DNA of 64,000 nucleotides. Source: Octopus vulgaris. Taxonomy: Eukaryota. Every line of letters starts with the position of its first letter. The first letter of the stretch is position 1. Position numbers and translations under genes: made by a program. Location: positions 39,184,001 through 39,248,000 of the forward strand of contig OX597818.1 of the NCBI GenBank assembly GCA_951406725.2, read 5' to 3'. Below the pieces are notes generated by a model, which had not been told where the DNA came from, searched no databases, and worked only from the letters and a program-made list of their open reading frames with translations. Of the stretch, positions 2,265-63,035 are shown piece by piece.

Positions 2265-2411
2265 AACAATTTCAATAAATTCAATAAAATCACTTATGAA
2301 GTAATAGGAGATGATAAGGCACCTGACTACCTCAGGATTGACTCTAACACTGGATCAGTATTTCTGAAACCTACAGCTGATTTAGTATCAACCAATATTA
2401 TTAAGTTTGTG
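2265..2411 (+). CDS. Cadherin gene exon 1 of window (short type, 49 codons)
   Basis: tttcag|[49 protein letters not shown]|gttagt. Confidence 0.85.
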
Positions 2412-5400
2412 GTTAGTATTTGATATTTCTTCATAGAATAATGTAATGGAACAAATATAGCAAAAAACTGCAAAAGGCCCAAATAACGACAAAGATTTTT
2501 ATTATATTAGACATGCTCTTAGTATATAGGAACTTTAACCTATTGTTCTATGCTTCAAGAATCATGGAAAATGTGTATCAGCTAAAAAAAGAAGGGTGAG
2601 AGAATATGGATTGTTGAACTGCAAGAATATCAGGCAACTAGAGGTTTATATTTTGTCACTACTGCTGTATTAATGAGTTGATGAAGCTAGAAATAGCACC
2701 CAACTCTTTTGTAAATGTAATGTCTTAAAAAGGGAAGATGTGTTGACTAGACACAATGTAGTTCAAGATACATGGCGTCTGCAAAGAAAATAAGAGAAAA
2801 ATGAAATGGCCATTGATTAACCATAGAAATGCTTAGTAGAACTGACTTGGAGCTAAACAACAGCAATCACTGTAATGTGTCTGCAGCCAAGACACACATG
2901 CTGCAATGCTTCTGCTCACCTAGCTCTAAGGAGGTATTATAGATCGGTATAATTCACAGCTGTAAGCAGTAGTGGATTGTAACATTTGTAACATTGATGT
3001 CTGCTATATTGTCTGACAATAGCAGAGTTTAATTCTTCATGCATGAAAAACCACCTGTGAGGGATTAACTAACATCTTATCATTTCTTATCTCTAACTTG
3101 TTTCAGTCATTGGACTGTGGCCATGCTGGAGTATTGCCATGAAGGGTTTTAGTCAAACAAATTGAAACCAGTACTTATTTTTTTTTTTAAAGTCTGGTGC
3201 TTATTATATTGGCCACTTTGCCAAACAGTAAAATTATAGGGTAGTAAACAAACCAACACCACTTGCAAGTGGTGAGTTGAGACAAACACAGACACAAACA
3301 CATAAACACATATATACAGACATATATCCACACACACACACACACACACATGCACGTATATGTATATATACACAGTAGGCTTCCACACAGTCTCCATCTA
3401 CCAAGTTCACTCACAAGACGTTGGTCAGCCCCAAGCTATAGCAGAAGACACTTGCTCAAGGTGATGCACAGTGAGACTGAACCTGAAACCGTGTGATTGC
3501 AAAGTAAACTTCATTATTGCACTTATTTATATATAATAACTGGAGACAGGTACCAGTCCAATAGAATGAAAATGTTTGCGAAAGGATTTCATTAAAAGAC
3601 AGTCAATGCTGATACTGCAACAAACATTAATAACTACAATTATTTCTCATGGCTTGAGAAATACATCAGGTATTATTTATCATAAAATGAAATCATATAC
3701 TGAAATATTTACATTTTATGGTTTAAGAAACTGCTCAGGGTTAGCAAAAATGTTTGGTAGAAAATACGCATAAAAAGTGTTCATGCTTAATTAAACTGTC
3801 CACATTTGACAAAATTATAATTAATTTTATAATGATAATCATTATGTTTATTACATCAGCCAAAATGTTTTGCGATATTTGTCCTGCTCCTTTACATTTC
3901 AAGTTCAATTCTTTTCAATTTTTAAGGTCAGCTTTGCCTTTCATCATTTTAGGTTCAACAGCAGTTAAGTACTGGGAGGGGGTTGGGGGTCGATGTAATC
4001 AACTTGCCCTCCCTCCCTCAAAATTTCAGGCCTCATACCTCTTGTAGAAAGGATTATTATGAAGAGGGTGATAGATGGGAAGAATCGTTACCCCTTCTGA
4101 GAAAATATCTTACTGTATTTTTCCCAGCTCTTTAGAACATTGCTTTCATCTTCCAAGGCTGAGAAAATAAAATACTAATCAAGTACTGAAATCAAATCAA
4201 CTGACCCTGTCCCTTCAAAATTGCTACCTTTAGGCCTAATTTACAAATTACTCTTATAATTATGAAGAAATGATTACTATAATTACTTCATTTATAAGTT
4301 GCTTGGCTTCTGGCTTCATACTGTTGCTTGATGGCATCGTCATGCATAGAGCCAACCAGATCCACCATTGTGGCTGTAGTCCTGTGTATGACCTTGTTGT
4401 GGCCAGGGGTTTCCATAGATCCAAAAGAGCATTACTGACTGGAGCTTTGCTCCCGGTAAGGTCAACCTAAGTGGGCTGGTCTCCTGGAGAGGTTCCAGAC
4501 TAATGGTGATCCACGGTACTTCAGCTTATTGCCAAAATGGCAGTCCCCTCATCCGACTAATCTGCAGAGGATGAACAACCTACCCAGAAAAAAACGATCA
4601 ACCTGTTACAACACTGACCTGAAGAAAATAGACTGCTCAACACATTTATAAGTATGAAAAATAAATGCTCTAATTTTGTCTAAATATCACAGTAACATAT
4701 ACTTATTTTTGCTGTAAGGCATCTTATGTTTTGTTGCTCAAGTCCTAAATATAATGAAATTTGTAACGTACATGAAGAAACATGATTTTTCCTTTGTTTT
4801 AATTTTCAGTTAAGAGTTGTGGCCAAAGACGACGGAACACCACCTAAAAGTGCTACTGCAACAGCTATTATTTCAATTAAACGGAATTTCTTTTCACCAG
4901 TATTCACACAAGATCCTATCATCAAGACGATACAAAATAATGTTCCTGTTGGAACAGTTATTGAAACTGTCAAAGCCACAGACAGGGATACTACAGTAAG
5001 AATATATTTACATATATCATCATCATCATCATCATCATCATCATCGTTTAACGTCCATTTTCCATGCTAGCATGGGTTGGGCGGTTTGACCGGGTTCTGG
5101 GAAGCCAGGAGGCTGCCCCAGGCTCCAGTCTGATCTGGCAGTGTTTCTACAGCTGGATGCCCTTCCTAACGCCAACCACTCTGTGAGAGTAGTGGGTGCT
5201 TTTTACGTGCCACCGGCACAGGGGCCAGAGGAGGCTGGCAAACGGCCACGATTAGTTGGCGCTTTTACGTGTCACCATCATAGATGCCAGTCAGGCGGCG
5301 CTGGCATCTGCCATGTTCGGACGGTGCTTTTTACGTGTCACTGGCACGGGTATCTTAACTACAATTTCCATTTGATTTTTATTTTGATGTGTGCTAAAAT

Positions 5401-6339: not shown

Positions 6340-6374
<35 letters not shown>

Positions 6375-6929: not shown

Positions 6930-6960
<31 letters not shown>

Positions 6961-9900
6961 CTCCCTCCTCTTCTACTTCTTCTTCCTCCTCCTTCTCTCC
7001 CTCCTCTTTTAATTCCTATTCTTCCTCCTTCTCTCCCTCCTCTTCTACTTCTTCCTCCTTCTCTCCCTCCTCTTCTACTTCTTCCTCCTCCTCCACCTCT
7101 CCCTCCTCTTCTACTTCCTCCTCCTCCTCCTCCTCTTCTACTTCTTCCTCCTTTTCCTCCTCTTCTACTTCTTCCTCCTCCTCCTCCGCCTCCTCCTCCT
7201 CCTCTTCTACTTCCTCTTCTACTTCCACTTCCTTCCCCTCCTCCTCCTCCTCTTCTAATTCCTCTTCCACTTCCACTTCCTCCTCTTCTAATTCCTCTTC
7301 CACTTCCACTTCCTCCTCCTCCTCCTCCTCTTCTTCTTCTTCTTCTTCCTCCTCTTCTACTTCTTCCTCCTCCTCCTCTTCTTCTTCTTCTTCTTCTTCT
7401 TCTTTTTCTTCTTCTACATCCAGCTAAATATTTTGCATTAGAAAGCATCTCACAGTTCGAATCTGCTTACACATGGCGTCACTGGAGGATCTGCATAGCC
7501 CCCCCACACCCTGCCAAAAAATGCTTTCCTTATAATTTCTAGTGACTCTGGATTTAAGGGGAACTGATTCAGTTGACACTTTAGCCCCATCTCTATAAAT
7601 GTGTAGCCAATGCTAAAGTTAGAAATCAATATCATTGGCAGCTCACCTTACTAAGGTGTCAGGTGATGCCCATGGGGGTGCTTGGCTTTTCCAATGCCTT
7701 AGCCTCACCATCACTTGCAGTAATGCCACAGACGTGCTGACATGCTTCCGTAGGTTCCATTGAACCTTGTGGTATGCAACCAATTGAAGTACTTGGTGTT
7801 GTATTGATGTTTAATCTTTTTTTTCTTTTTCTTTCTCCCCCCTCCCTTTTTTTTGGTTTTTTCCTTTACTTTGCCTTTCTTTTGTAAAATATATTTCTGT
7901 TCATATTTTGAATAAAATTAAATATTTTGTTTAGCAAATTTTACACACACACACACACACAAATATATATGTTAAAAGTTAATCAGTTTGAATAAAATTA
8001 TATATTTTGTTTTGAAAATTTTACACACAGACACACACACACATATATATATATATATGTTAAAAGTGAATCAGTTGGTTATTTTAATTTTCTTAATATT
8101 ACACAGGCACCAAACAATGTTATCAGCTATGAAATATATGGAGAACAGTCTGCTTTACAGTATTTCTTCATCAATCCGAACACTGGAGCAGTTAGTCTAA
8201 TCAAGTCCTTGGTTAATGGTCCTAATCGATTTGATGTAAGTTAGTTTTTGTTTTGAGGTTTTGTTTTTGTCTATGTATGACTGTGTATGTACAAGTATGT
8301 ATGTGTGTAGAGGCACACAGCCTAGTGGTTAGAGCAGCGGATTCGCAGTCGAGGGATCACAGATTTGAATCTCAGACCGGGCGATGTGTGTGTTTATGAG
8401 CAAAACACCTAAGCTCCACGTGGTTACAGCAGAAGGTAATGGTGAAATTCTGCTGACTCTTTTGCCACAACTTTTCTCACTCTTTCCTCCTACATTTTGC
8501 AGCTCACCTGTGACGGACCGGCGTCCTGTCCAGGTGGGGAACCTACACACCAAGGAAACCAGGAAACCAGTCTGGGAATTGAAACCATGATCCTCCGACT
8601 GCGAGTCCACTGCCCTAATCACTGTGCCATTGCACCTCCACTAATGAATGTTCCTTCTCGAGCCATGCCAGGCTCATAAGAGCTGGTTTCCCAGTTTTGA
8701 TGATGTGTAAATTCCCCACCTGGATGGGACGCTGGTCCGTCACAGGATTACCTATTTTTGCCAGCTGAGTGGACTGGAGCAATGTGAAATGTAGTGTTTT
8801 GCTCAAGAACACAACACATCACCCAGTCCAGGAATCGAGACCACAATCATACGATCATGAGTTCAACACCCTAACCACTAAGCCACGTGCCACCACAAAT
8901 CCTAAATTAATGTTTTAAAATGTTTATAAATCTGTATATAAATAGTTTTCAAAATGAATAAGTATATGATTTATTCATATAAATATTTTTCTAGCTTTTA
9001 AAAGCTAGATCTTCATCATCCCTGCACTTGTGTTTACATGTGTGGTAAGCAGACATTATATTTCTCAAAGTCAGATGTCTTTTGTAGACCTTTTCCTTAT
9101 TTCAACTCCTCTTGCAATCTTTCAGGTAAAAATCAGGGCGAAAGATGCTGGCATGCCATCTTTGGCTGATACCATGACTCTACAAGTAACAGTTATTAAA
9201 AGTTCTGGACCAGCTGACTTTACCCAACGGAATTATAACATTACCATTGATGAAGCATTCCCTAAATCATCAATGGTCCTTAATGTACAAATAAACTCAC
9301 CAGTAAGTAATTGTTCTTCAATTGTTTTGTTTCTGTTTTCTTTTTATTTTGTTATTTTGTTGTTTATAAATATTGGTTGGTACTTGGTTGCAGAGACAGT
9401 TGAGTACAACCTGGCATTAATACTTGGGATACAAGGCTTTTCTGTGAAGTTTACAAGTCAATGGCAGAACCTCTTTCATGTTCATTAAACTTGCCAAAAA
9501 TTGTAATCAAATCTCAGTGTTGCCTTTAAAAAAAGAATGATGTATTGTATGAGATAAACTCTGCTTTTAAAGAAGGGGTGGCCATGGTGAGGATGCCTTT
9601 GGGTATATTTGACTAAGACTGACCAAGACTAAACAACAGCAAACAAAACTAACACTGAACTTCACTGAAATGAAAATGACCTTTACAAAGTATGTTCATT
9701 AGAGAAGGAAGAATATGTAATAAATGCTATGTGCTGAGTGAAAGAAGGCCAAAGCTGTTTGCCTCTTCCTTTATTAAACAAGCTATGATTTAAAGCATTC
9801 CAGCAATGCTCATATTGCCTTTTTAAATGTATTTTGCTGAGGCAAAGATGACTGTGGAAAAATTTGTAGTAAAAGTAAAAGGAAAATCCGGAAAAAAGTA

Positions 9901-11673: not shown

Positions 11674-14600
11674 ATCTTTATATATATATATAGGTATGTT
11701 GATGCAAACAGGAAGGAAAAATGGAACTAAAAATATGAGTATATGTATATTTTTATCAATATTTAGCAGAAGTAACTGAGTGACTCAAGGTCTGAGAGTT
11801 TCGGGTATTGGCACTTACCAAAACTGGATACAGGTGGAACACCTGTGAGTTTATATAGCTGATGATAAATATATTTCGCTCTGGATCATTCCAGATCAAA
11901 TTTTAAAATCCTAATAATGTCATGTGGATAATTCAATAAGCAAATACATAGATAAATAAATAAAGAAATAAGAGAGAAGAAAAGAAAGAAACCTTGTGTG
12001 TATCATCACACATGCACACACACACACACACACTCACATGCACACGCATGCATGTGCACACACACATGTGCGCACACATACACACACAAAAAATCCCGCA
12101 TAAATTTTGCACATAAATATCTATCTTTATATATATGCCCCGTGTTTAAGCTGATGCAATTGAATTCTCTAAATTACATTTATAATGAATTATAGTAAAT
12201 TACATGATTTTGTTTTATTGTTTTAGATGCAATACACCTACAAATTAGTTGGTTATGTACCTGGTACAGAATATTTTGGAATTGCAGAAAATGCTGGTTC
12301 AATATTTGTTAGAAAGGACCTGAAATCTGATACTTTGAATTCACCCACTTACACAGTAAGAGAATTACAGCATTTGCTTTGCTTTGCATGTTTTGCTTAT
12401 CATACTATCATTACCTTCTTGGTCTCCTGTTTTTTTACTTTCTCAACTTTTTGTGGTTAACCCTATACATGTTTGTTTTCAGTGTCAGCAACAGTTGACA
12501 TTGAATATGATAAAATCTGTAGTGAATTTTCTATAACAAATTTAATTGAAATTCTAAGAAATATTTTAGCAATGCTTGCATTTACTCTGTTATAACTTAC
12601 TAGCTGACCATTGTGTCTTGCCCCAGTCCCAGTTTGATTGCTTTTCTGATTCTATGAAATGGATACATTCCATTGACCAGACAGTTCATTTGTTTATCAG
12701 CATCCTCTGGAATGCAGGCTCAGCATGCTTTGGCTGTTAATGTACAAATATACACTGAGGTAGTGCCGTCTGATTTTTCTGGACAGTAAGCATGTTTGGT
12801 CTCTGTTTGTAAGATATGTTTTCCTGCGGCTCATTTCCTTGGTGGATCAGCAGTCATGGGTCAAACTATGATCAAGATTGGATTGAATGCCTTACACTTG
12901 GAATGTTGTTAAATGTTCACTGCACTCTAACAGAGCTGGAAATTCGACTTTAGCAATAGATATGGAGAACTAGTAGCAGGTAAGTGTGATGAGTTCTTGG
13001 GAAAAATTTAGGCTGAGGATGAACTAGGTGACCTGTTTCAAAAGACTTTCTGAACAGATAGAACTTTGGATGATTTTCTAAATTTCTTGACCTGGTAATG
13101 CTACTGAGGGGTACTATCTGTTTAAGATAAACTCTACAGTCATGGACATTCCACCTGGTGGACTGTTCAAGATGTACACAGAGTGATGAAACCATACTTC
13201 ATGCACTCATGCAGTGTCCAAGCTTTGCTGACTTGTGGAGTAATGACAAACAGTTGTTGTCACATGCAGGGTGAATCCATCTATCAACTGAATCCATTGT
13301 GGGGATTACGTCACTACTCACCTTTAACAAAGAGAGGTTGGTGATTATTTTCTGTCTAGTGGCCTTGATGAAAGAATTTGTATTGACAACAAGTCTGAAA
13401 ACATTAAGAACAGACACCTTCTTTGGCTCATTTCAAAAAAATATACTGGTAACTTTCAATGCTAAACTTTTGAAATGCCACTGAAATTTTGGTGCCAGTT
13501 AATCTCTCAAAGAATTCTATCACAAATTTTACTTTGGCTGCTAAAATTATGCATGATAATTTGACTTCACTTGTTAATTTTAGCTATATCATTTGTGATT
13601 TCCTTTACTCATGATTCACTGCAATCACGTTCAACATAATGGTGTACAAAGGCATTTGCATGTTTCCAGTAATTTCCCATATCAGTATAAATCTGTTTTA
13701 TCCTCAAAAACTGGGATTTTAAATTTGACTTAATTATATGATGGTGGTGAAAGTAAATGTGGGATGACATGGGCTTGCAAAATAACTGTCACTATTCTGC
13801 CTCTTGAAAACAACATTTGCATCCCAAAACTCAATGTTAGATTTTGAAAAACTAGACATAAATTTTATGTTGGACTTAAAGCCATAGTTTTTTGTGTAAC
13901 AGTCACAGAAATGCAAGAAGTTAGCTAAACTGTCCTGTGATCCTTCCCTGACAAAAAAAGACCTTGTCAAAGAACTGTAACCAGAGTATTGGATCATGAC
14001 CATGCAGGGGTCTCAATTAATTGTGTTTTGAATTTCATCATGAAGACATTAGTGAAATTAACTGCCATGGGGGTGTCCATGGTTCAACCCCTCGGCTGGT
14101 GGTAAAAACTTTGTCCAGACTTCATTATGCTACTTTGTAACACAAAATTCAATAATTTACAGAGAAAATTAGATGGAATACTTTTGTTTGATCATTCCTG
14201 AAAGGCATTCATGCACGCTTCCATTCCCACATTGTGGTCAGTAATGGAGCATAGTGAAGAAACACTTATGGTTACCAAAAAACAGTTGTTAATTTTGGAT
14301 ACAAAATCAAAAGTATCCTGAATGTAGGAACTCGATTTTTTTGCTACAGGGAGTGGAAAGCCATCCAGCCATTCCAAAATTTTGGCTGTATAACATTCAT
14401 ATCTGCTGCAAACTGGGCACATTGGAAGAAATTTTTGAACCTTTTGTTTATTTTGGGGAGATCATAGAATACAATTTTCTTTGTTCTGATCTTAAATAGT
14501 CAAGCATATTTTAATCTTGAAACATTTCTATATTGTTGTTTTCATCATTGTCATCATCATCATCATCATTATGTTATGCCTATTTTCCCATGCTGGCATA

Positions 14601-42087: not shown

Positions 42088-43273
42088 TTATTGTATACAA
42101 TGCTCAGATGCACCACAGCCATCAGAAAAAGTAACTAAAACTGCATGAACAGTACATGAAATATCCTCAGGAAGTGAACAGTGAATAAATCCTTAAAAAA
42201 AATTGGGTTGAGGGCATTGGGCAAACTGCTGGTGAATATTTCAGGAAGCATGGAAGTTTTGAACTAACAATTAACAACTGATGCAGGAAGCTTATTCCAT
42301 GTTTCAGCAATTCTGAGCATGAAAAAAATGTTTCCATACTAGCTGAATATGACCTCAAATAGCCAACTAGATACCAAGTCTAATGTGAAACAAACAAGAG
42401 AAACTATTGAAGCAAGGAGAAATGGCTGGGTTGAGTTTGTTGCTATAAACTGAACTCAATTGTCAGGATCACTTTACAATGGGTTCCATAGGGTAAAGGA
42501 AGACATTAGCGACCAAAGGAAATATGGCAGAGAACAATAACAAAAGATCTTAAAAGCAGAGTGTCAACAATGGAACAAGGTGTCAAGGATGCTTTCAGTG
42601 TTAGGTGGAATGATCTTGCCGCTGCCTCAGGTTCCACAAGGCACAATGAAAACCAAATGTAATGTATGTAAATCAATATATTTTACTATGACAGTTGAAA
42701 ATTAAGTATTTCCCTATCTTTGATTACCAGCTTGTCATATTTTATCAAATTTTCTTAAACTTACTTAAGGAAAATGCCATCACAATATAATGTTATGAAT
42801 TATCTATGTACTATTTTCAGGATATTGTTGACTATGAAATGATAGATCCAGTGAGCAACAATGCTTATCAGAACTTCTTCATTTCAAGAAATGATGGCAC
42901 TATTTATGTAAGGCAACCTCTCGATCGGGATAACACCACCAACATGTTTACTGTAAGTATTAGATATTAATAAAGTGGAAGTATTTTTATTTTATTTTTT
43001 TAATTTTTCATCATTTAACCAATTTCATAATATATTTTGTCTTCAACTGTTTAGTTGTTCTAGTCATTGGACTGTGGTCGTGCTGGGGTACAGCTTTCAT
43101 GGGTTTAATCAAACAAATTGACCCCAGTACTTCTTCTACTTGTCAAACTACTAAGTTACTGGGATATAAACAAACCAAGACCGGTTATCAAGCAGCTAAG
43201 AATGGGGACAAGTACAAGTACAACGAAACACACACACACACACACACACTAACACTCACACACACACATACAC

Positions 43274-52300: not shown

Positions 52301-55300
52301 ACCTGTGCTGGTGGCATGTGTAAAAAGATTCAAGCAAGGTCATTGCCAGCACTGCCTGGCTGCTGGTGGCATGTAAAAGCACCCACTACACTCTCGGAGT
52401 GGTTGGCGTTAGGAAGGGCATCCAGCTGTAGAAACTCTGCCAGATTGAGATTGAAGCCTGGTGCAGCCATCTGGTTTGCCAGCCCTCAGTCAAATCGTCC
52501 AACCCATGCTAGCATGGAAAGCGGACGTTAAACGATGATGATGATGATGATGATGATGAATATATATTATGCTGGACAGACCAGAATTTCACATCATTCA
52601 TGCTATAAACAGTTTTGATCTAGATTTTAATTTAAATATTACCCCTTTGGTACAGTTAGTCCTGGGCAGGGTAGTGCTAAAGCAGCTACTTATTACAAAT
52701 GAATAGGTTAACAATAAAATTACCTTCAATCTTTCCTAAACATATATAGAAAAATTTATTTTAACCTATACATCATCATCATCGCTTAACGTCCGTTTTC
52801 CATGCTAGCACGGGTTGGACGGTTCGACCAGGGTCTGGGAAGCCAGGAGGCTGCACCAGGCTCCAGTCTGATCTGGCAGTGTTTCTACAGCTGGATGCCC
52901 TTCCTAACGCCAACTACTCCGTGAGTGTAGTGGGTGCTTTTTACGTGCCACCAGCACAGGGGTCAGAGGAGGCTTGCAAACAGCCATGATCAGTTGGTGC
53001 TTTTACGTGTCACCGACATAGATGCCAGTCAAGCAGTGCTGGCATCTGCTCCGTTCAGACAGTGCTTTTTACGTGTCACCAGCATGGGTCTCTTAATTAC
53101 AATTTCCATTTGATTTTCATTTTGATGTTGGTGTTGACGTACTTGACTCAATAGGTCTCCTCAAGAACAGTGGGTCACTCTATGATCCAAGGCTAGCACA
53201 GCAGGCCATGCTGTGAGCCATGAACTCACTTCATTTGTCGGGTCTTCAATCATGTTATGTGAATGATTTAAGTCCTTCATATTTCTCATGCTCTTTAACA
53301 TAAAACATAGTTTATTCTTAAAACTACAGAATAATTTTTACTTAATAAGTAATGTTGTGTCATCAGAAATATTTTTGCATTCACTAAATTTAACCTTTCC
53401 CTCTGTATTTTTGTATTATTTTATCTTTTTGCAGGGTAAATCCATACACTATAAACTAACTGGAAAATATCCAGCTTTGTCATTCTTTCAAATAGACAAA
53501 TTGACAGGCGTAGTTTCACTTACTGATACCTTGAAGAAACCAAATATGTTTCTAACTACATTTACCGTAAGTTGTTTTTGTTTAACACACACACAAAACA
53601 AAATATTACTATTCTTTATATTTATTTGTTTTATATAGCTATTTGATAACCATCCAAATATCCAGGTATGGAAAAATAGCTGTTAAAATTTGCATAAAAG
53701 AAGGCATGTGTGTATATGTATATGTGTGTGTGCATGTATGCATTATGTGCATATGTGTACTTGTGTGTGTATATATATATATAAGATAAGAAAATAGAAA
53801 ACGGAGAAGTACTGATGAACAACAATTGACTTACATCAATTATTATTAATTAATTCAAGGCAAATAGACTGCCTCCCATCTAACAGCTGTTTCTGCTTCC
53901 AGTGTTGCCATTGATATGCACAAATATGTAAAATATTAATCATATTTCGTAATAAAACCGATCTGAAACAAGGAGCTTCATCAAAGTGAAAAATAAATAA
54001 AGAGGAAGAGCGTAGAGAGAAAAAAAGGGAAAAGTTGAATATGGTTACAATCATACCATTTTGCTTGTGTCTCTTTGGGCCATTAAGTAAAAGACTAAAC
54101 CAAAATAGCAATTGGTGGGTTAATCCTTTGTACAGGGGTGGGGGGATAGGATGGATAAATAAAAAAAAATTAAAAAAAATATAGTGGGATACAGCAATAG
54201 GTTTTAGTCAGGGAAGGGGTTTTGATACAGTAAGGTTTTATATTAATCATAATAATTTATAATAGTTGTTTGTAGCACTAATTAATAGTATTACTCATAA
54301 TAAAGTGCTAATAGGTTAAATGCAATTTGATTTGCAAGTAGGTGGTTAAGCCTTTCCACCTGTTGTCCGAAGTGAGATAGGCCAAGGTCCAGCGTTTGAT
54401 GTAAATGGTCAGTTGAAATTTAAAAACTAAAGACCAGCTATTGAGACCGTTATACAAGGTAAGATAAATAAATAAATGAATAGGAAGATGGTGTGTTTTG
54501 TAAGGGGCCCTAAAACGCTTCGGATATTAAACATTAGATTTTAAAAAATAATATTATGGGATCTTTTTGGTTTGAACGGCAGGTTTTTAACATAATTTCT
54601 AGGTAACTAAAAAATTTTAAACTTCGTATACTGGTAGAATGTGTTTATAAAACATCTTTTTCTCTTGGCTTTATTGAGAAAATTCTATAGTTTGTAAGAT
54701 ATTTGTTGGTTTTTTTCTTCAATTTCTGCAATTTCAACCAATCAATGGCATCTATTGAGGTAAAAAAAACATTCTGTGCCATCTGAATATGTCCCTCATT
54801 TAAGAAACTGATTGGGTTTATTTACATTTGTGAAGAAAAAAAGATACCCTTCCCCCCCACCCCTAACCCTAATCCTAAAAGAGATTGAAATGCAATAGAT
54901 CGATTCTAGGGTCATAATTATGGGTGACAATTTCATATGACACCACTAGAAAAAAACTGCCATTCAAACCAAAAAGATCCATATTATGGAATAAATATTA
55001 AGAGATGAACAAGCAAAATGGTATGATTACAACCATACTCAACCTTTCCCTTTTTCCTCTCTATACTCTTCTTCTTTATTTATTCTTCACTCTGATGAAG
55101 CTCCTTGTTTCAGATCAGTTTTATTACAAAATATGATTAATATTTTATGTATTTGTGCATATCAATGGCAATACCATACAGAAACAGCTGTTAGATGGGA
55201 TGCAGTCTATTTGTATTGAATAAATGAATGATAATTGATGTAAGTCAATTGTTGTTCATCAGTACTTCTCCATTTTGTGTTTTCTTTAAATTTTGATTCG

Positions 55301-56099: not shown

Positions 56100-56167
<68 letters not shown>

Positions 56168-57089: not shown

Positions 57090-57134
<45 letters not shown>

Positions 57135-60100
57135 TTGTGTGTCTGTGTTTGTTCTCCTAGCATTGCTTGACAACTGATGCTGGTGTGTTTACGTCCCCGT
57201 CACTTAGCGGTTCGGCAAAAAGAGACCGATAGAATAAGTACTGGGCTTACGAAAAAGAATAAGTCCCGGGGTCGAGTTGCTCGACTAAAGGCGGTGCTCC
57301 AGCATAGCTGCAGTCAAATGACTGAAACAAGTAAAAGAGTAAAAGAAAAAGAGAGAGTATTTCTCCTTCATGAACAAAGACTAATCATCTCAGCACTTTC
57401 TAATCTTACTTGGCCCTTGAGCACTCTGTTTTATGCAATGTATATTCATTAACATCGTTTTGAATTAATCATGCATTATCTCATAGCTTTGAGATTTCAA
57501 TGATATAATTGCTTATTTTTAAAATGGCATCGTAGGGAAGACTGAGAAGCCACGTCTGGCTGATTTAAACTTAAAACAGGTAGAATATTTGAGCCTGATA
57601 TGGTCAGTTTACCAACCATATGATTCTTGGGTGCTTTTGCAGAGTTTGCTGTGTTGCAAGAATTTGGACCTATTTTCTAATTTGAGGATTGTTGTTTCTT
57701 CCCCTTTTTCCTCCACCAATCTTAAAGGCCCTATAAAAGACTAGCTTTCTAATATTAATTAAGCCATAAAAAAGATATTTTTTTTTGTATTTTATATACG
57801 TATCCTTTTATTTCTTCTATTTTTAGTTGGATGTGGTTGCATATCAAGAAAATAACACAAAAGTTTCTACAACGGCTCAGTTAGTGATTAATGTAATCCG
57901 AAACCCTAATGCTCCAATCTGGGACAGTAGATTGTATAATAAATCTATTAGTGAAAACCATCATATCGGTTCATCTGTCTTACAACTGACTGCTGATGAC
58001 AAGGATCAACAGGTTAGTAGCTTCCAGATGTTTCTTTAATGTTTGTTCTACCTTAAGTGATGCTTTTTCATCATCATCATCATCATCCTTTAACGTCCGC
58101 TTTCCATGCTAGTATGGGTTGAATGGTTCAACTGGGGTCTGGGAAGCCAGAAGGCTTTACCAGGCCCAGTCTGATCTAGCGGTGTTTCTACAGCTGGATT
58201 CCCTTCTAGCTGTAGAAACACTGCCAGATCAGACTGGGCCTGGTGCAGCCTTCTGGCTTTTTGTTTCTATAAATTAGGTTTAAACTTGAAAATTTAAACT
58301 TGATAATTTATATTGAATACATTTGAAGAATATGTAATATAAACAAAGAGAAAATAGCTTTTAATTCATACCCTGCTTATTCACCAAAAAAATCATTTAT
58401 TTCTTATTTCTTTGATTTGGCTTTATGACATGAGATCAAATCTTATAGAAGCCTCATATTAAATCACTGTAAACGCTCTAATTGCTAGTATATGAATATA
58501 ACATATAGCCAAATATTGATCAGTTTCATTACTCTTAAATCTAATATAGAGTATCTTTTATTGGAATATAACATGTATGTATATGATACATATATAATAC
58601 AAAATCACATCAAAAATACAAATTCAAAATCAGGAGAAAAAAATGGAAAAAGAAGAACAAAGAATGATAAAAAAAGAAAAGAGTAAGAAAAACAAAAAAG
58701 AAAGAAAAAGCATTAAATCAACACCAAGTGCTTCAATTGGTTGTACACCACAATGTTCAATGGATCCTGCTGAAACAAACCAATACACTTGTGACATTAC
58801 CACAGGTGATGGCGAGGCTAAGCCATTGGTACAGCCAAGCTCCCTTAAAGGCATCATCTGACACCTTGGTAAGGTGAGCCACCAATGATTACAAGAACTT
58901 CACCATTAGTGGCCCTGTTTACAGAATTTGTTTTGCTTCTGTAAACTAGAAACACTGATTTTTTTTTTTTACTTTTTAAAGAACCAGTCAAAGAAAATAT
59001 TTTCTCAAATCCAGAATTTCTGAGTGCATGTTGATACTTTACTCAGTTCCATGGTATTAAGCAGCTAAAAGACAAATCTCCTTCTGGGTAGCATGCCACT
59101 CTATCCCATTCCCAACTGGCAGTAGGCTTAATTCTTTGGTTTAACACCCCATCTGTCCCTCATGTGCCTTTAGCAGAGTTCATTCTGTTGCCAGCATCTG
59201 GTAAGGTCATAGGTCTTTGGATAACTTCCTTCTATCCAGTCATTATGCTCTTCTTCTTGTAACTAAGCCATAAAAAATGTTTTTAAAGGAACTTGCCCTT
59301 CTGCCTGACATCTTTGTGAACTGAAGAGACAATGCAGAATTAAGCATTTTACTCAGAAACTATGAAATGATTGCAACCAACATGGACTTACAACATATGA
59401 ATTTGTAGTCCAGACCCTTCTATACTTTGTGGTTATTTTTTTTCCTTACAATAAATAATTATCCCTGTTTGAATTTTTAAGTCCTACAATTATCTGCAAG
59501 TCATTGATTTGGCAAAGACATATATTTATTTAAACACCTTTTTTGTTCCATAATTATTCCATAATACACACAATCTTATTATTGTGTCAAGATTTGCAGG
59601 TGATTGTTGTTTAGACACAGGTCAGCCCTAGGTGAGCAGACCTGTAATGAATGGTATTCTAACCATAAACATTCCAGCATTCCCTTGGGAATTATGCATC
59701 TAGAAGTACATTATTCAATGGATCCCTTTTCTTGGTGGTGGAGTATAATTTAAAGGATAATTGACTACTACTTCTAGCAGGTCGAGTGACCAGAGTGTGA
59801 GCTATTTGAATTTAAATTGGAAGTCAGTTAACTGATATTTATAGTAAAAAATATCATTTAAAATATATCAAAAGCAAGCCAATAAGATGTTGTTCCAAGA
59901 CTAAAGACAATTCTATTTTGCTAAACATAAGTGTTACAAAAGACTAGAGCTAAGTCTATTTAGCTGAATTAAATAGAATCAATAGCTAAATAGAATTAAC
60001 TCTAATATTTGCTACTAAATCTATGGTACCAAAGGCTAGAGTTAACTCAATTTAGTCAAAGACTAGAGTTAATTCTCTTAAGCAAAATATAAATATATGT

Positions 60101-62593
60101 CTTTGCCAAATCAACAAACCTCTCAATGCACCACATAATCATTCTCTCTCTCTCTCTCTCTCTGCATATGGGTGCCAACAGTCATGGACCTCCATGCCAA
60201 AATGTGAAGATTAATTATTTTTCTTAAGAGGCTCCAATTGCTATCTCCTGGCTCATTTATAGTTTACCTTGCAAATCCTTCTGCTCTCTTGACCTTACCC
60301 TTGGGGCAGAGTCCATTAACTCTGAGACAGAGGAACTGGTTCACTTGCCATAAGGGCATATCCATAAGCCAGGACACTTGTGACAACATGTCACAAGTGT
60401 CAAACCTTCAAATCCTGTATGCCTTCACTGTAGCATATTCTTGTTATTTGGCCCTTGATGGGGACTTTGACAAGTACTATCATTCCAGGTCAGAACAGAC
60501 CTGGTGCAGGGGTGACTGAGGAATAACTATATGAGGGGGTGCTGAAAAGTTCCTGGCTTTAAGGATATCACAAAAGGCCTGGCTGGAGACCCAACCTTCC
60601 AAGTTTTTTCACAGGGCTTGAAAATACTGAAGGACCACTGCAATAAGTGTGTGAATATGAGAGGGGAATATGTTGAATAAAATCATAAGTAATTGATCTG
60701 TCTGTATTTTCTTTTACTCAAAGCCTGGAATTTTTCAGCAGCCCCTCGTATATGCTCCAAACTCTTGAACTCTGACCTCACCACCAGACACAGTTCAATG
60801 CTTTACCTAGGACAATAATCATTTCACTTCGTTTTTCTCAGCTTGGATTAGTTTTCTTTAGCTCAGAGTCTCACAAATTGCAATGACTCTTTGTCATCAA
60901 AAACAAAAAGATTGAGGAACATGCAGAGAAAAAACAAAGAATACATCATTTAAATCTTACACCATAGCTCCTTTTAGTATTCCATGTTTAGAATGAGGGT
61001 GCCTCTTTTCCTTTTAAATATTTTTTTGTTAATTATATTCTGTGCAACATTTGAATAATTTTTTATTAACAAAATGTTATCCTCTATTAATTTATATAAT
61101 CTCTTCTGTTGTCTTTTACAAGTTTCATATTTAAATAATCATTTTTTTATTCTACTATTAGGACAAGTTAACCTACACTTTGGTGTCGCAGAATACCGGA
61201 AGCACAAACTATTTCTTTTTAGAAGAAGACACAGGTATACTTTATCTGCTGAGATCCTTGAAAAATAGCTCTTTCAATGTATTTAATGTAAGTATATGTT
61301 ACTTTTACTTTAACAATTAAAAGTTTAATTTTCCTATAATAATTTCTAGATTTTCAAATTCAAATTCCACAAATGTATGTGTACGTGCACATGCACACAC
61401 GCATACACACACACACACACACACGCATGTACAAAGACAAAAATTTGACTAGATGCAGCATATTTTACAAATCTAGCTGAGGCTTATAAAGATACAGTGT
61501 TATGCATTGGAATCTACTTCTACACAATGATGTACACAAACATAGATTCTGTTTGTAGGGTTTACCAAAAGAGCTTACTTAAATAGCCACTGTCAAAAGC
61601 ACAAGCACAATTCTTTTAATAGTCAGCAGTAGTCTACCCTAGACAAAGGTGAACTGCTAACACACACACACACACACACATACACACACATATTAGATAA
61701 AGATAGTTATAGTCAGTCTATGGGGTTACCCAGGGTTTCACATCCATAAGGTGCTTAGGTTTATGTCGTCTCTTCAAACCCAAATGACTGTTGGTTATTA
61801 GAGGTTATAGACTGTAGACCAGTTATAACTATCTTTATCTAATTACTCAACTGCTCTAATACTTAGATTGTGCTTCACTTTCTGATTTATGATTCACTGA
61901 TGATATACATACATACATACATACATGCATCCTCACTATAGTTAAGGGTGGATGTAAACAAATGCGAATGAATGACAAAATGCAAAAAAAAATATAAAAA
62001 GATATATAACGAAATCTACGGAGAAAAATTTACAAATGATAAAATATAATAATCATATTTTACAAAGTAAAAATTAGAGAGTATATTAACGTAAAAATGA
62101 CATGAAAAATATTGTAAAACAAATGTAAAAATATCGTAAAAAATATGTATGTTCAATCTACCATTGTATAACATGGTCATACTATGTGTTAAGTTCAGCT
62201 TAACGTCGAAAGGTTCGACGAAAATATCTACATTGTCTGTTAATTACATTCGTAACTGTTAAAATATTAAAATATAGAAATTGTAATTGAATTATAATAA
62301 AGTTATCAAGAGTCCTGACGATTGGGGTTGCAGTTAAGACATGTTTCTGTAAAAAAACTGAGTGTCTAGGGAACGTTAAACGCACCTCATGAAACATGTG
62401 TAGAAGAGAAATTTAGAACTGATTAATAAGTATTAAAATAAAATTTTATGATATGGCGTGATGTACATTAGGATTTGATTAATTGCATGGGGATTTCTAT
62501 CTCTAAATAACATATATTTCCTTATCAGGAATAATTCATTTTATTTGAATCCCTGTGACATCAGAATCTTTTATTCCCTAATAAATAAAATAA

Positions 62594-62637
<44 letters not shown>

Positions 62638-62727
62638 GGAGTAAACACATAAATGTGAAACAAGGTGGAAAAAAGGAGTACTCAAATACCAGTGGTAGAA
62701 TAATATGCTTTTGCTGCTTTAAATAAA

Positions 62728-62768
<41 letters not shown>

Positions 62769-63035
62769 AGTGAGGGAGTAAGACAGAGAGAGAAGTAATG
62801 AACTAAAAATAAGTATATAATAAAATATTCTGTATTTTTATATTTTTTGTAGTTGGATGCTAAAGCTTGTGATAATGGAATCCCTGAAAAATGTACAGCA
62901 ATGAGAATCTATATCTATGTACGAAAAAGTACACCTCCCCAGTTCACCACATCTGCATATTACGCTGTTATCAATGATACTTTATCACCACAAGCAACTG
63001 TTCTTTCTGTTACTGCCAGTGATCAAGATTTACAA
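2265..63035 (+). CDS. Internal part (28 exons, 1451 codons, about 14 EC repeats) of a giant non-canonical cadherin-repeat protein (Fat/CDH23-like architecture); both gene ends lie outside the window
   Basis: 28 segments with polypyrimidine-AG acceptors and GT donors. All lengths are multiples of 3 and they join without stops. Recurrent cadherin motifs: AxD, (N)xPxF, GxxV/IxxVxAxDxD, YxI/L, FxIxxxTGxIxL. Many NxS/T sequons. Confidence 0.93.
2670..2865 (+). mobile_element. Old retroposon 3' fragment with (CAA)n-like tail; relatives at about 9460-9645, 30690-30860, 31140-31335 and 59603-59790 (-)
   Basis: Shared degenerate motifs GCTAGAAATAGCA, ATAATGTAGTCCTAGATA, TTTGATCATAGGTC and GCTAAACAACA. 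Confidence 0.55.
3085..3510 (-). mobile_element. SINE of the family with an internal (TA)n/(TG)n microsatellite
   Basis: Diverged reverse-complement match to the intact copy at 56924-57350. Confidence 0.75.
4810..4995 (+). CDS. Exon 2 (long type, 62 codons)
   Basis: ttcag|[34 protein letters not shown]...[16 protein letters not shown]|gtaaga. Confidence 0.92.
5016..5390 (-). mobile_element. RTE-tail retroposon copy, about 20 nt after the exon 2 donor
   Basis: (CAT)n followed by the family core. Confidence 0.8.
5484..6654 (+). mobile_element. Internally deleted mariner element with a nested SINE (about 6200-6600)
   Basis: TA-flanked TIRs TGAGGTAGTATCAAAAAGTTC / GAACTTTTTGATACAACCTCA. Transposase remnants [15 protein letters not shown] and [22 protein letters not shown]. 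Confidence 0.8.
6876..7415. repeat. About 540-bp (CTT/CCT)n polypyrimidine/polypurine compound microsatellite
   Basis: Directly visible. It produces the spurious RG-rich and E-rich minus-strand ORFs. Confidence 0.95.
7630..7860 (-). repeat. Unclassified dispersed repeat (about 190 bp plus A/T-rich end); other copies at 43705-43985 and 58630-58900 in the opposite orientation
   Basis: Shared CACCAAGTGCTTCAATTGGTTG, GGTTCAATGGAACCT, GGCATCACCTGACACCTT and GTGAGCTGCCAATGAT. Confidence 0.75.
7908..8076. repeat. About 80-90 bp tandem duplication containing (AC)n, just upstream of exon 3
   Basis: TTGAATAAAATTA...TTTTACACA(CA)n...GTTAAAAGT.AATCAGTT occurs twice. Confidence 0.8.
8107..8235 (+). CDS. 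Exon 3 (short, 43 codons)
   Basis: acag|[43 protein letters not shown]|gtaagt. Confidence 0.92.
8309..8895. mobile_element. Cluster of tRNA-derived SINE copies (one plus, two minus partial)
   Basis: A/B-box-like heads. The body matches 256-569 and 18820-19067. Confidence 0.7.
9126..9302 (+). CDS. Exon 4 (long, 59 codons; lacks DxD)
   Basis: ttcag|[59 protein letters not shown]|gtaagt. Confidence 0.9.
10140..10265 (-). mobile_element. CR1/L2-type LINE 3' fragment
   Basis: [13 protein letters not shown]...FKNSMFPKI resembles the FFxxRVVxxWNxLP C-terminus of CR1-clade ORF2. Similar fragment at 42085-42335. Confidence 0.55.
10694..11150 (-). mobile_element. RTE-tail retroposon copy
   Basis: (CAT)n, family core and degenerate internal tandem units. 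Confidence 0.8.
12227..12355 (+). CDS. Exon 5 (short, 43 codons)
   Basis: tttag|[43 protein letters not shown]|gtaaga. Confidence 0.9.
13000..14480 (-). mobile_element. Decayed Penelope-like retroelement, reverse transcriptase region
   Basis: Minus-strand motifs in the expected order: [74 protein letters not shown]. Stops and frameshifts present; left boundary uncertain. Confidence 0.8.
14624..14797 (+). CDS. Exon 6 (long, 58 codons)
   Basis: ttcag|[58 protein letters not shown]|gtaagt. Confidence 0.92.
15610..15762 (+). mobile_element. Old SINE family fragment (core GACTTTGCCTTTCATCCTTTCGGGGTCGATAAAATAAGTACCAG); relatives at about 580-720, 3860-4050, 31515-31725, 32750-32900, 35270-35470 (-), 38490-38680 (-) and 39260-39460 (-)
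   Basis: Recurrent degenerate core with B-box-like GAGTTCAAAT. Confidence 0.7.
16372..16506 (+). CDS. Exon 7 (short, 45 codons)
   Basis: tacag|[45 protein letters not shown]|gtaaga. Confidence 0.9.
17313..17726. repeat. Recent 207-bp head-to-tail tandem duplication
   Basis: 17313-17519 and 17520-17726 differ at only a few positions; TTA microhomology at the junction. Confidence 0.9.
18070..18258 (+). CDS. Exon 8 (long, 63 codons)
   Basis: ttcag|[37 protein letters not shown]...[16 protein letters not shown]|gtgagt. Confidence 0.92.
18820..19067 (-). mobile_element. tRNA-derived SINE
   Basis: Minus-strand head GGAGGCACTTGGCTTAGTGGTCAGGG...GGTTTCGATTCC; matches 8660-8895. Confidence 0.75.
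19636..19961 (-). mobile_element. RTE-tail retroposon copy with about 2.5 internal 63-bp tandem units
   Basis: Family core, then repeated TTTTATGTGCCACCGACACAGGTGCCAGACGAGGCTG. Confidence 0.85.
20075..20200 (+). CDS. Exon 9 (short, 42 codons)
   Basis: cacag|[42 protein letters not shown]|gtaagt. Confidence 0.9.
20882..21064 (+). CDS. Exon 10 (long, 61 codons)
   Basis: accag|[61 protein letters not shown]|gtaagt. Confidence 0.92.
21663..21776 (+). CDS. Exon 11 (short, 38 codons)
   Basis: cttag|[38 protein letters not shown]|gtgagt. Confidence 0.87.
22169..22387. repeat. Near-perfect inverted repeat, about 98-bp arms with a 23-nt loop
   Basis: 22169-22266 is the reverse complement of 22290-22387 with a few mismatches. 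Confidence 0.9.
23526..23951 (+). mobile_element. Internally deleted hAT (Tip100-like) element
   Basis: Degenerate TIRs CAATGCTGGTTTAA / TTAATCCAACCCTG; 8-bp flanks TCTACATC / TTTGCATC; remnant [31 protein letters not shown] resembles the end of the hAT dimerisation domain. Confidence 0.7.
24503..24685 (+). CDS. Exon 12 (long, 61 codons; Cys pair)
   Basis: ttcag|[36 protein letters not shown]...[13 protein letters not shown]|gtaagt. Confidence 0.92.
25372..25841 (-). mobile_element. Young RTE-tail retroposon copy with five 62-bp tandem units
   Basis: ACAGGTGCC recurs at 25555, 25617, 25679, 25741 and 25803 (period 62). Confidence 0.9.
26172..26297 (+). CDS. Exon 13 (short, 42 codons)
   Basis: tgcag|[42 protein letters not shown]|gtaagt. 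Confidence 0.9.
26371..28265 (-). mobile_element. 5'-truncated, decayed RTE-clade LINE (RT, C-terminus, 3' UTR and (GAT)n tail)
   Basis: [49 protein letters not shown], and C-terminal [17 protein letters not shown]. Ends in the family core plus (GAT)n. Confidence 0.88.
29098..29317. mobile_element. piggyBac-type MITE
   Basis: TTAA on both sides (29094-97, 29318-21); termini CCTTTT...AAAAGG. Confidence 0.65.
29470..30070 (+). mobile_element. SINE (microsatellite-core family) interrupted by a 223-bp local duplication at 29677-29899
   Basis: The 5' half (29470-29675) and 3' half (29900-30070) are collinear with the intact copy at 56924-57350. Confidence 0.75.
30144..30323 (+). CDS. Exon 14 (long, 60 codons)
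   Basis: ttcag|[60 protein letters not shown]|gtacga (weaker donor). Confidence 0.88.
31759..32619. mobile_element. Mariner derivative built from two inverted 5' halves
   Basis: TA-flanked TIRs. The plus arm encodes [16 protein letters not shown]...TCSEAYTK and the minus arm encodes [27 protein letters not shown]. Confidence 0.85.
32987..33106 (+). CDS. Exon 15 (short, 40 codons)
   Basis: ttcag|[40 protein letters not shown]|gtgagt. Confidence 0.9.
33131..33815 (-). mobile_element. Heavily 5'-truncated copy of the RTE LINE (ORF end plus 3' UTR)
   Basis: Collinear with 26371-27045. Confidence 0.85.
34808..35196 (-). mobile_element. tRNA-derived SINE (CpG-rich, young)
   Basis: Minus-strand head GGAGGTGCAATGGCCCAGTGGTTAGGGCAGCGGACTCGCGGTC...GGTTTCGATTC. 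Confidence 0.8.
36107..36283 (+). CDS. Exon 16 (long, 59 codons; DxD replaced by HRN)
   Basis: tacag|[59 protein letters not shown]|gtaaga. Confidence 0.9.
36580..36985 (-). mobile_element. SINE, microsatellite-core family
   Basis: Reverse complement of 56924-57350; (AGTAAAAG)n tail. Confidence 0.85.
37771..37893 (+). CDS. Exon 17 (short, 41 codons)
   Basis: ttcag|[41 protein letters not shown]|gtaagc. Confidence 0.92.
38722..39236. mobile_element. Unclassified insertion bracketed by (TAA)n tracts, possibly the end of a microsatellite-targeting non-LTR element
   Basis: Block of higher GC between (TAA)n at about 38683-38720 and about 39237-39248; no coding motif recognised. Confidence 0.35.
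39738..39920 (+). CDS. Exon 18 (long, 61 codons)
   Basis: tacag|[61 protein letters not shown]|gtaagt. Confidence 0.93.
40075..40373 (+). pseudogene. Pseudo-exon fragment: copy of the 3' half of exon 20 plus its downstream intron and SINE head
   Basis: [35 protein letters not shown] versus exon 20 [38 protein letters not shown] collinear with about 44827-45126. Confidence 0.88.
40520..41090 (-). mobile_element. SINE, microsatellite-core family with expanded (TACA)n/(TA)n
   Basis: Flanks match the family; internal repeat about 230 bp. Confidence 0.8.
41153..41460 (+). mobile_element. tRNA-derived SINE
   Basis: TGGCCTAGTGG...GAGTTCGAATC head and (CAA)n tail; matches 256-569. Confidence 0.8.
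41830..42024 (-). mobile_element. Short RTE-tail copy embedded in (TAA)n
   Basis: Family core at 41893-42024 with (TAA)n on both sides. Confidence 0.75.
42085..42335 (-). mobile_element. CR1/L2-type LINE 3' fragment
   Basis: Minus strand reads [28 protein letters not shown], then a UTR running into (ATT)n. Confidence 0.6.
42821..42952 (+). CDS. Exon 19 (short, 44 codons; only LDRE-like motif, PLDRD)
   Basis: ttcag|[44 protein letters not shown]|gtaagt. An internal in-frame GTAAGG is also present at 42908. Confidence 0.9.
43050..43480 (-). mobile_element. Diverged SINE, microsatellite-core family
   Basis: CCAAATTCACTCACAAAGCATTGGTC and CATTGGACTGTGG..GCTGGGG motifs. Confidence 0.7.
44749..44931 (+). 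CDS. Exon 20 (long, 61 codons)
   Basis: ttcag|[61 protein letters not shown]|gtaatt. Confidence 0.9.
45810..45935 (+). CDS. Exon 21 (short, 42 codons)
   Basis: tgcag|[42 protein letters not shown]|gtaaga. Confidence 0.9.
46669..46924. mobile_element. hAT (Charlie-like) MITE
   Basis: Termini CAGGAGTTCTCAGCC / GGTTGATAAACCACTG; 8-bp flanks CTCTATAT / CTCTTCAT. Confidence 0.65.
47125..47307 (+). CDS. Exon 22 (long, 61 codons)
   Basis: ttcag|[61 protein letters not shown]|gtaatg. Confidence 0.92.
48110..48349 (+). mobile_element. Non-LTR retrotransposon 3' fragment with A-rich tail
   Basis: [38 protein letters not shown]-stop, a short UTR, and a poly(A)-like tail at about 48329-48349. Confidence 0.65.
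48813..48941 (+). CDS. Exon 23 (short, 43 codons)
   Basis: tgcag|[43 protein letters not shown]|gtaagt. Confidence 0.92.
49505..49997. mobile_element. Two RTE-tail copies in inverted orientation (49505-49750 minus, 49808-49997 plus)
   Basis: The family core appears forward and then as its reverse complement, separated by a short microsatellite. Confidence 0.85.
50412..50830 (-). mobile_element. RTE-tail retroposon copy
   Basis: (CAT)n plus family core. Confidence 0.8.
51472..51663 (+). CDS. Exon 24 (long, 64 codons; AAG acceptor, lacks DxD, 3' end ambiguous)
   Basis: ttcaag|[64 protein letters not shown]|gtgagc. Alternative in-frame donor GTAAGA at 51628. Confidence 0.8.
51850..52558 (+). 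mobile_element. Long plus-strand RTE-tail copy with internal degenerate tandem units
   Basis: Ends GGTTGGCGTTAGGAAGGGCATCCAGCTG...GCATGGAAAGCGGACGTTAAAC(GAT)n. Confidence 0.85.
52771..53250 (-). mobile_element. RTE-tail retroposon copy, close relative of 5016-5390
   Basis: (CAT)n plus core; internal sequence collinear with 5016-5390. Confidence 0.8.
53435..53566 (+). CDS. Exon 25 (short, 44 codons)
   Basis: tgcag|[44 protein letters not shown]|gtaagt. Confidence 0.9.
53788..55286. repeat. About 285-bp inverted repeat pair (53788-54075 and 55000-55286), probably Penelope-type pseudo-LTRs
   Basis: The arms are reverse complements throughout. Each carries (C/T)TGATGAAGCTCC...GAAACAGCTGTT. Confidence 0.8.
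54559..54980. mobile_element. MITE with about 24-bp TIRs and a perfect 8-bp TSD (Merlin-like by its GG termini)
   Basis: ATATTATG|GGATCTTTTTGGTTTGAACGGCAG...CTGCCATTCAAACCAAAAAGATCC|ATATTATG. The superfamily call is inference. Confidence 0.85.
55995..56385 (+). mobile_element. 5'-truncated SINE, microsatellite-core family
   Basis: Collinear with 56985-57350. Confidence 0.85.
56924..57350 (+). mobile_element. Full-length tRNA-like SINE with internal (TA)n(TG)n and (AGTAAAAG)n tail
   Basis: Head GGCGCAGGAGTTGCTGTGTGGTAAG...GGGTTCAGTCCC; about 10 relatives in the window. Confidence 0.85.
57827..58012 (+). CDS. Exon 26 (long, 62 codons)
   Basis: tttag|[62 protein letters not shown]|gttagt. Confidence 0.92.
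58068..58259 (-). mobile_element. Truncated RTE-tail copy ending in a fold-back inversion
   Basis: 58144-58195 is the reverse complement of 58208-58259 (4 mismatches in 52). Confidence 0.85.
59504..60114. mobile_element. Candidate MITE with perfect 25-bp terminal inverted repeats
   Basis: TTGATTTGGCAAAGACATATATTTA / TAAATATATGTCTTTGCCAAATCAA; internal AAAGACTAGAG subrepeats; no TSD seen. Confidence 0.55.
60532..60748 (+). mobile_element. Mariner-derived MITE
   Basis: TA-flanked TIRs TGAGGGGGTGCTGAAAAGTTCC / GGAATTTTTCAGCAGCCCCTCG; transposase C-terminal remnant [14 protein letters not shown]-stop. Confidence 0.85.
61162..61287 (+). CDS. Exon 27 (short, 42 codons)
   Basis: attag|[42 protein letters not shown]|gtaagt. 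Confidence 0.9.
61692..61843. repeat. Small inverted-repeat element with perfect 20-bp arms
   Basis: ATTAGATAAAGATAGTTATA / TATAACTATCTTTATCTAAT. The interior resembles the reverse complement of about 23453-23487. Confidence 0.7.
62853..63035 (+). CDS. Exon 28 (long, 61 codons; Cys pair)
   Basis: tgtag|[61 protein letters not shown]|gtaaga. Confidence 0.92.

Follow-up and report, generated by a model that had tools for sequence, protein, structure and literature searches.

In the reading that we favour and consider probable, the window analysed here, a stretch of 64,000 nucleotides of Octopus vulgaris DNA (G000:C5:39,184,001-39,248,000), accounts for 14 out of the 75 core repeats in a single-pass cadherin with about 84 EC domains. 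This cadherin is likely CDHX, is likely spliced constitutively, and is predicted to act as a tether of ~0.4 µm of the PCDH15/CDH23/CDHR2 type.

Exon organization of the window

The coding sequence at positions 2265-63035 was rebuilt de novo using profile searches and splice-site listing on the sequence. It comprises 28 exons on the plus strand (4,353 nt encoding 1,451 aa, free of stops), and every exon is flanked by AG/GT, has a length divisible by 3 and is open only in frame 0 (28 of 28). The 27 introns are all phase 0. This independent rebuild reproduces exactly the exon number, the divisibility of the exon lengths by 3 and the intron phases of the first-pass annotation. Short exons (114-147 nt), which encode strands C-E, alternate strictly with long exons (174-192 nt), which encode strands F-G and strands A-B of the next domain. 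If about half of introns are assumed to be phase 0, the chance of 27 out of 27 is ~7e-9; since the window introns are duplicated copies, this uniformity represents inheritance and not 27 independent events.

The window corresponds to repeats 36-49 of the gene, and its first four bases (1..4, plus strand) close the repeat-35 long exon. The short exon of repeat 36 is located at 2265..2411 (147 nt) and the long exon at 4810..4995 (186 nt). The short and long exons follow at 8107..8235 and 9126..9302 (129 and 177 nt) for repeat 37; at 12227..12355 and 14624..14797 (129 and 174 nt) for repeat 38; at 16372..16506 and 18070..18258 (135 and 189 nt) for repeat 39; and at 20075..20200 and 20882..21064 (126 and 183 nt) for repeat 40. 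Repeat 41 is encoded at 21663..21776 and 24503..24685 (114 and 183 nt), repeat 42 at 26172..26297 and 30144..30323 (126 and 180 nt), repeat 43 at 32987..33106 and 36107..36283 (120 and 177 nt), and repeat 44 at 37771..37893 and 39738..39920 (123 and 183 nt). The long exon of repeat 44 has the weakest acceptor of the 148 core exons, with 2.1 bits against a median of 10.9. The remaining pairs are at 42821..42952 and 44749..44931 (132 and 183 nt; repeat 45), 45810..45935 and 47125..47307 (126 and 183 nt; repeat 46), 48813..48941 and 51472..51663 (129 and 192 nt; repeat 47), 53435..53566 and 57827..58012 (132 and 186 nt; repeat 48), and 61162..61287 and 62853..63035 (126 and 183 nt; repeat 49).

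The only intronic copy of an exon found among the 148 core exons is at 40074..40374 (plus strand). It partially duplicates, at 84% identity, the long exon of repeat 45 (44749-44931), of which it contains the 3' half together with ~195 nt of the downstream intron, and it sits 4.7 kb upstream of that exon, bracketed by an imperfect direct repeat of ~45 nt (about 40031-40075 and 40391-40435). Use of an AG further upstream would yield a 183-nt phase-0 exon with two weak splice sites. This segment was rejected as a mutually exclusive exon, being half an exon with an acceptor of 2.3 bits, a donor of 1.5 bits and an unrelated upstream part; it is likely a dead fragment. Elsewhere in the introns, a 207-bp tandem duplication with 98% identity was observed at 17313-17729, and minisatellites of 62-66 bp are present in several of them.

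Complete gene and domain order

The full gene model was built from 300 kb upstream and 200 kb downstream of the window, with splice sites corrected by hand. It contains 177 exons over 418 kb (G000:C5:38,980,279-39,398,762) in a single open frame of 9,017 aa, from a start exon at G000:C5:38980279, which encodes a signal peptide, to a stop at G000:C5:39398762. The extension into the flanks, suggested in the first-pass annotation as the way to the signal peptide, TM and tail, recovered all three in this model.

In the 204 kb of the gene upstream of the window, the start exon is followed by 16 exons that encode about 7 canonical EC domains and then by 69 core exons in phase 0 (repeats 1-35). Downstream, 151 kb include 51 phase-0 core exons (repeats 50-75) and then 12 C-terminal exons, which encode two EC domains, a membrane-adjacent domain (MAD, ~110 aa), a TM helix and a tail ending in TTIL. 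The domain order is thus signal peptide, about 7 EC domains, the core (75 repeats, 148 exons), 2 EC domains, the ~110-aa domain, one TM and the tail, and the EC domains total about 84 (7 + 75 + 2). One EC1 exon was probably lost in a 100-N assembly gap.

Phase 0 is found in all 147 core introns and is lacking in 15 of the 28 terminal ones (phase 1 or 2 being found in 7 of the 17 N-terminal and 8 of the 11 C-terminal introns), and the earlier description of a gene built entirely from phase-0 exons is thereby restricted to the core. Two further corrections concern the intron sites described for every repeat. DxD precedes the long-to-short intron in 55 of 74 long exons and not in all, and one core intron is absent. 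There, about 104.5 kb upstream of the window, lies the sole fused long and short core exon (315 nt, L030:5329-5643), where the intron between repeats 10 and 11 has been lost precisely. The accessible text of PMC5473995 describes intron positions as conserved among classical cadherins and makes no mention of phase.

The gene occupies a single locus in G000, a genome of 2.8 Gb. The TM exon has one real match and the long-exon matches of this layout are at this locus, these counts being lower bounds, and no second comparable locus was found among the at least 80 matches listed. The other Pfam cadherin matches in G000 (150 scored) lie within open frames of 118-1,782 aa, with the best-scoring domains whole in large frames, so that the half-domain layout looks particular to this gene.

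Cadherin class and membrane end

PF00028 matched P0001 in 8 stretches (E 1e-75) and P0011 in 28 stretches (E 5e-253), and the structural model contains EC sandwiches. Tandem EC domains with a beta-sandwich fold place the protein in the cadherin superfamily, and the initial designation as a giant cadherin is upheld.

The canonical calcium linker motifs are given as XEX-DXD-D(R/Y)(D/E)-XDX-DXNDN in the accessible text of PMC8691648. In the core, none of the 74 long exons contains DxNDN, and D(R/Y)E occurs in two of the 75 short exons; in a canonical motif scan of the coding strand of the window, neither DxNDN nor LDRE was found. In place of DxNDN, [RK]N-x-P occurs in 49 of 74 long exons, and DxD is kept in 55 of 74. 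The same pattern of loss is seen in six orthologues, and the terminal EC domains keep several canonical calcium motifs. The loss of DxNDN and D(R/Y)E suggests that the core linkers likely bind little calcium.

The C-terminus was modelled by AlphaFold on a 737-aa fragment of the Argonauta orthologue (7 sequences, mean pLDDT of 68). The model presents EC sandwiches, then a strand-helix-strand-strand-helix arrangement at residues 496-578, and a TM helix from residue 608. Of the 978 chains aligned to it, the top five are PCDH15/CDH23 fragments reaching into the MAD (Z 18.1, 16.6, 16.4, 15.5 and 15.2), including PCDH15 EC9-MAD12 and CDH23 EC25-MAD28; entry 6c10 has Z 15.5 and an rmsd of 4.3 over 199 residues. 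A ferredoxin-like MAD is thus predicted before the single TM, as in Cr-2 cadherins. By sequence the MAD was not significant: PF23206 matched in one of nine cases, at E 0.029, its search of G000 returned no candidates, and a MAD profile compared with PDB sequences gave four unrelated matches (E 0.3-1.8) and no PDB cadherin. The Atlas returned, as leads only, the PCDH15 MAD (0.85) and a FAT3 fragment (0.90).

According to the accessible text of bioRxiv 10.1101/460097, the MAD is located directly before the TM in PCDH15, CDH23 and PCDH24, and before EGF or LamG domains in FAT and CELSR. Pfam scans of P0001, P0002, P0011, P0025 and P0038 detected no EGF, LamG or seven-pass part, and the model shows one TM peak. 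When single N-terminal exons were used as queries, one had no Pfam match and the best natural PDB match of the other was PCDH15, a weak one (E 0.019). The C-termini are TTIL, TTML or LTQL in four of the six orthologues listed, with TTIL in the full octopus model, and we take this T-x-L tail to be of the PDZ type.

With the Cr-2 cadherins PCDH15, CDH23 and CDHR2 (PCDH24), which form tip links and intermicrovillar links, the gene shares the succession of EC array, MAD and single TM. It differs from them in having about 84 EC domains against 11 and 27, in its strict A/B periodicity (described below), and in core repeats without DxNDN and nearly without D(R/Y)E. The likeness to Fat, Dachsous, CELSR and the clustered protocadherins lies in the long EC array recognized by PF00028, and the names of the orthologues in databases are borrowed from these families; the octopus gene differs in having no EGF, LamG or seven-pass part. 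Databases fragment the gene and mislabel it as Fat or CELSR. Its membrane end belongs to the PCDH15/CDH23 type.

Growth of the repeat array

The core repeats have a mean identity of 26% and a maximum of 46%, and such a maximum excludes recent duplication. Identity is 27.3-28.8% at even lags and 24.7-25.9% when the lag is odd, an alternation seen alike in the two halves of the array and the two exon types. This parity difference, of 1.9 points, was matched in none of 5,000 shuffles, and 63 of the 74 repeats share their parity with their best match. In a quickly built repeat tree (56 of its 71 branches unresolved), used for label clustering alone, the odd and even labels change 6 times, compared with 24.8 times when labels are shuffled. 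The alternation indicates that the amplified unit consisted of two domains, A and B, encoded by four exons.

The first-pass annotation had proposed growth by exon-pair duplication. Its duplication origin is retained, with the unit corrected from a single exon pair to four exons and two domains. Continuing change of array length, also implied there, finds no support, the closest repeats being only 46% identical and the register being common to cephalopods, bivalves and gastropods. We suppose that an ancestral pair of EC domains, with four introns that by chance were phase 0, would have been amplified about 37-fold through unequal crossing-over. The amplification would precede the split of cephalopods, bivalves and gastropods, which dates to the Cambrian, and the array would have been frozen afterwards. 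Phase 0 is best read as a permissive condition and a fossil of this old tandem expansion, and not as a splicing code.

Conservation of the register across molluscs

The closest proteins are from Octopus; with a model of 5,454 aa from the O. bimaculoides cluster, identity amounts to 83.5% and collinearity holds from repeat 27 onwards. When the 305 C-terminal residues were searched against proteins of 3,000-9,500 aa, 10 orthologues were obtained among 1,007 candidates, namely one cuttlefish-like contig product, five bivalve models and four gastropod models. These are labelled as Fat-like or hypothetical, and the RefSeq names are 'protocadherin Fat 3/4-like' or 'CELSR-like'. Most of the non-cephalopod orthologues are fragmentary gene models, and repeats 1-5 are covered by none. 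A homologue search that used one long exon as query yielded 0 of 22 candidates.

Among the 74 octopus repeats, the best match of a cuttlefish repeat is its positional partner in 45 of 45 cases. For bivalves and gastropods this is so for only 8-20 of 23-64 repeats (about a third), and the in-register identity is 30-35%, compared with 26-30% for a shift of 2 or 4 repeats and 24-27% for a shift of 1. An alignment-free register test on five-repeat segments found one constant offset in 129 of 156 segments over 10 orthologues, a sum from which Pinctada, an eleventh protein, was left out. The offset recovers the same value after each missed segment, and in Elysia it holds over repeats 6-74. The 27 segments that were off lie in many cases around repeats 28-40. 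Two gaps of ~100 aa in the alignment of S. echinata were rejected as real differences; they are likely end artefacts, because the alignment-free test needs none. In the Pinctada model the offset drifts from 12 to 15 (by 3), with exon-sized gaps.

From these sequences, the gene is considered pan-mollusc, present in cephalopods, bivalves and gastropods, and not specific to cephalopods. Intron sites also appear to be common to octopus and to bivalves and gastropods. The models of Batillaria and Pinctada miss blocks of 40, 41 and 61 aa within one residue of octopus junctions, a fit this close being seen for 3 of their 10 large indels, and the two indels between oyster isoforms lie 1 and 3 residues from octopus long-to-short junctions. 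In the oyster protein K1QB61 (P0033), a short-exon unit is present twice at residues about 70-160, with the boundaries of the octopus short exon; the doubling is probably an assembly or model artefact, yet it shows shared intron sites.

A separate observation concerns repeats about 28-40, which extend from 31 kb upstream of the window to position 21000 within it, where the register signal is lost in several bivalves and gastropods with an equal offset on either side. This is a putatively faster-evolving or homogenised segment.

The length of the array could be incidental, that is, the gene could be a cadherin, Fat-like or other, whose expansion was neutral and whose core repeats are under no selection for number or order. 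The RefSeq names agree with such an origin, as do the identity of only 30-35% between core repeats of different mollusc classes and the MADs predicted in FAT and CELSR too (bioRxiv 10.1101/460097, accessible text). We find this scarcely credible, since the MAD of the octopus protein is followed directly by a single TM and EGF, LamG and seven-pass parts are absent, and the 150 scored cadherin matches of G000, in open frames of 118-1,782 aa, represent a different layout. Moreover, symmetric cassettes could easily be lost, but three mollusc classes have retained the register; that an array of 75 repeats, built from cassettes that can be removed in frame, has stayed in register points to selection on length.

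Probable constitutive splicing

Four cuttlefish Logan contigs of 16.6-22.7 kb encode 5,104-5,252 aa, which indicates that they are intron-free and likely represent transcripts. Each of them joins the 27 junctions of the window consecutively (108 of 108 in total), and all 89-91 core junctions per contig are consecutive. Six shorter contig products from cuttlefish and oyster, with 1-30 junctions each, are consecutive too. The oyster RefSeq isoforms X1-X3 differ only by 3 aa. No multiple ectodomain isoforms were found in the 10 contig-derived proteins, which come from two 90% clusters and from assembled contigs, where rare variants are dropped, or in oyster X1-X3. Tandem mutually exclusive exons were likewise not found, the 148 core exons alternating strictly.

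Skipping of exon pairs, or of longer exon runs, was envisaged in the first-pass annotation as a source of many length and chimera isoforms for recognition, as in Dscam. The structural premise is correct. The exons are symmetric half-domain cassettes and, with all 147 core introns in phase 0, the frame survives any skip, while skipping of a pair brings the strand count back to seven. In the window, the repeat-44 long exon offers a weak acceptor, and the arthropod N-cadherin demonstrates that cadherin exons can splice alternatively (PMC2655722, accessible text). On the other hand, single-exon skips are equally in frame and break the fold, so that phase 0 does not select pairs, and skipping of a pair would unite half-domains of the A and B types and thereby invert the conserved A/B register downstream. 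The core splice sites are strong (medians of 10.9 bits for acceptors and 9.6 bits for donors, with GTAAGT in 82 of 148 donors), short and long exons alternate strictly with no duplicated alternative exons, and the contig-derived proteins show the consecutive junctions, and the oyster isoforms the 3-aa differences, given above. We regard combinatorial splicing as very unlikely, and the proposed isoforms were not borne out.

The octopus gene resembles the arthropod N-cadherin and Drosophila Dscam1 in having small exons in a repeat-domain adhesion protein. N-cadherin, however, has three pairs of alternative exons and up to 8 isoforms, according to the accessible text of PMC2655722, whereas the octopus gene is a linear chain of single exons; and the duplicated alternative exons of Dscam1 have no counterpart in it.

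An intermediate situation, in which splicing is mostly constitutive and a few regulated isoforms, made by four-exon A/B skips or an internal start, tune the length by tissue, is unlikely. Four-exon skips preserve both the frame and the A/B register. Three cuttlefish contigs, P0008, P0022 and P0026 (17.6, 22.7 and 20.5 kb), encode an identical product of 5,252 aa with the same start Met in repeat 29, and this shared start could mark a transcript boundary or a splice bubble. It is a first Met that lacks a signal peptide, and gene calling at the contig ends may explain it; in addition, no such length isoform is present among the compared sequences. Where comparable, repeat order and count are kept in cuttlefish, snails and clams, so that one tether of fixed length is likely, and not many splice variants.

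Relationship to CDHX

A cadherin with 77 EC domains and high expression in suckers has been reported for O. bimaculoides (Wang and Ragsdale 2017, as cited in PMC6339937), and CDHX has been described as a unique, sucker-enriched octopus cadherin (Wang and Ragsdale 2017, as cited in PMC6110919). The gene of the window is very probably this CDHX, an identification based on size and uniqueness and not on sequence. Both are octopus cadherins of comparable size, and the present locus is the sole one of its kind among the G000 matches listed. They differ in that 77 EC domains were published, as known here through the citing papers, and about 84 were counted in this work. Furthermore, the citing texts present CDHX as 'unique' and sucker-enriched, whereas the window gene has bivalve and gastropod orthologues.

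The view of the gene as an under-described adhesion or recognition system is accordingly kept for its architecture, and given up for the gene itself, which has likely been reported already. No account of the exon layout, the A/B periodicity, the frozen register, the mollusc-wide range or the MAD turned up in full-text literature searches, and the primary octopus papers or their supplements may state some of them. As the gene is likely in print as CDHX and combinatorial splicing is unsupported, it does not represent a new recognition code.

Proposed function

For the constitutive tether of fixed length that we favour, a division of labour may be proposed by analogy. The canonical EC domains of the N-terminus would bind a partner in trans, and the calcium-poor core would serve as a spacer of set length. 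An EC domain is 4.5 nm long, and the spacer would measure about 84 x 4.5 nm = 0.38 µm. The MAD would drive cis dimers, and the TTIL tail would bind a PDZ scaffold, presumably of the harmonin type, at an apical membrane, such as that of the sucker epithelium.

A broader proposal, which we advance only tentatively and regard as rather doubtful, is that CDHX is a pan-mollusc molecular ruler of the tip-link class, ~3x the length of CDH23. Its 75 calcium-poor A/B repeats would have stayed fixed in number and order since the Cambrian, despite every exon being removable in frame, because the rod of ~0.4 µm would set a physical distance, between microvilli or from the epithelium to the cuticle or shell matrix, and would pair in register; four-exon skips could retune its length in suckers.

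Neighbouring and related loci

Two further observations were made outside the cadherin gene. About 12 kb past its stop, a gene is arranged tail-to-tail with it on the minus strand (L051:211-8534), which we take to be 2-oxoglutarate dehydrogenase E1 (OGDH)-like from its translated C-terminus. The 3' exons and a 3' UTR of ~4 kb are present, spliced contigs were found in three of four runs, and the gene is a possible synteny marker. In addition, three similar cadherin-like matches, with open frames of 240-248 aa and 240-320 kb apart, are located on the minus strand at G000:C2:127120439, 127363546 and 127680298, and these possibly represent a separate, tandem-duplicated cadherin.
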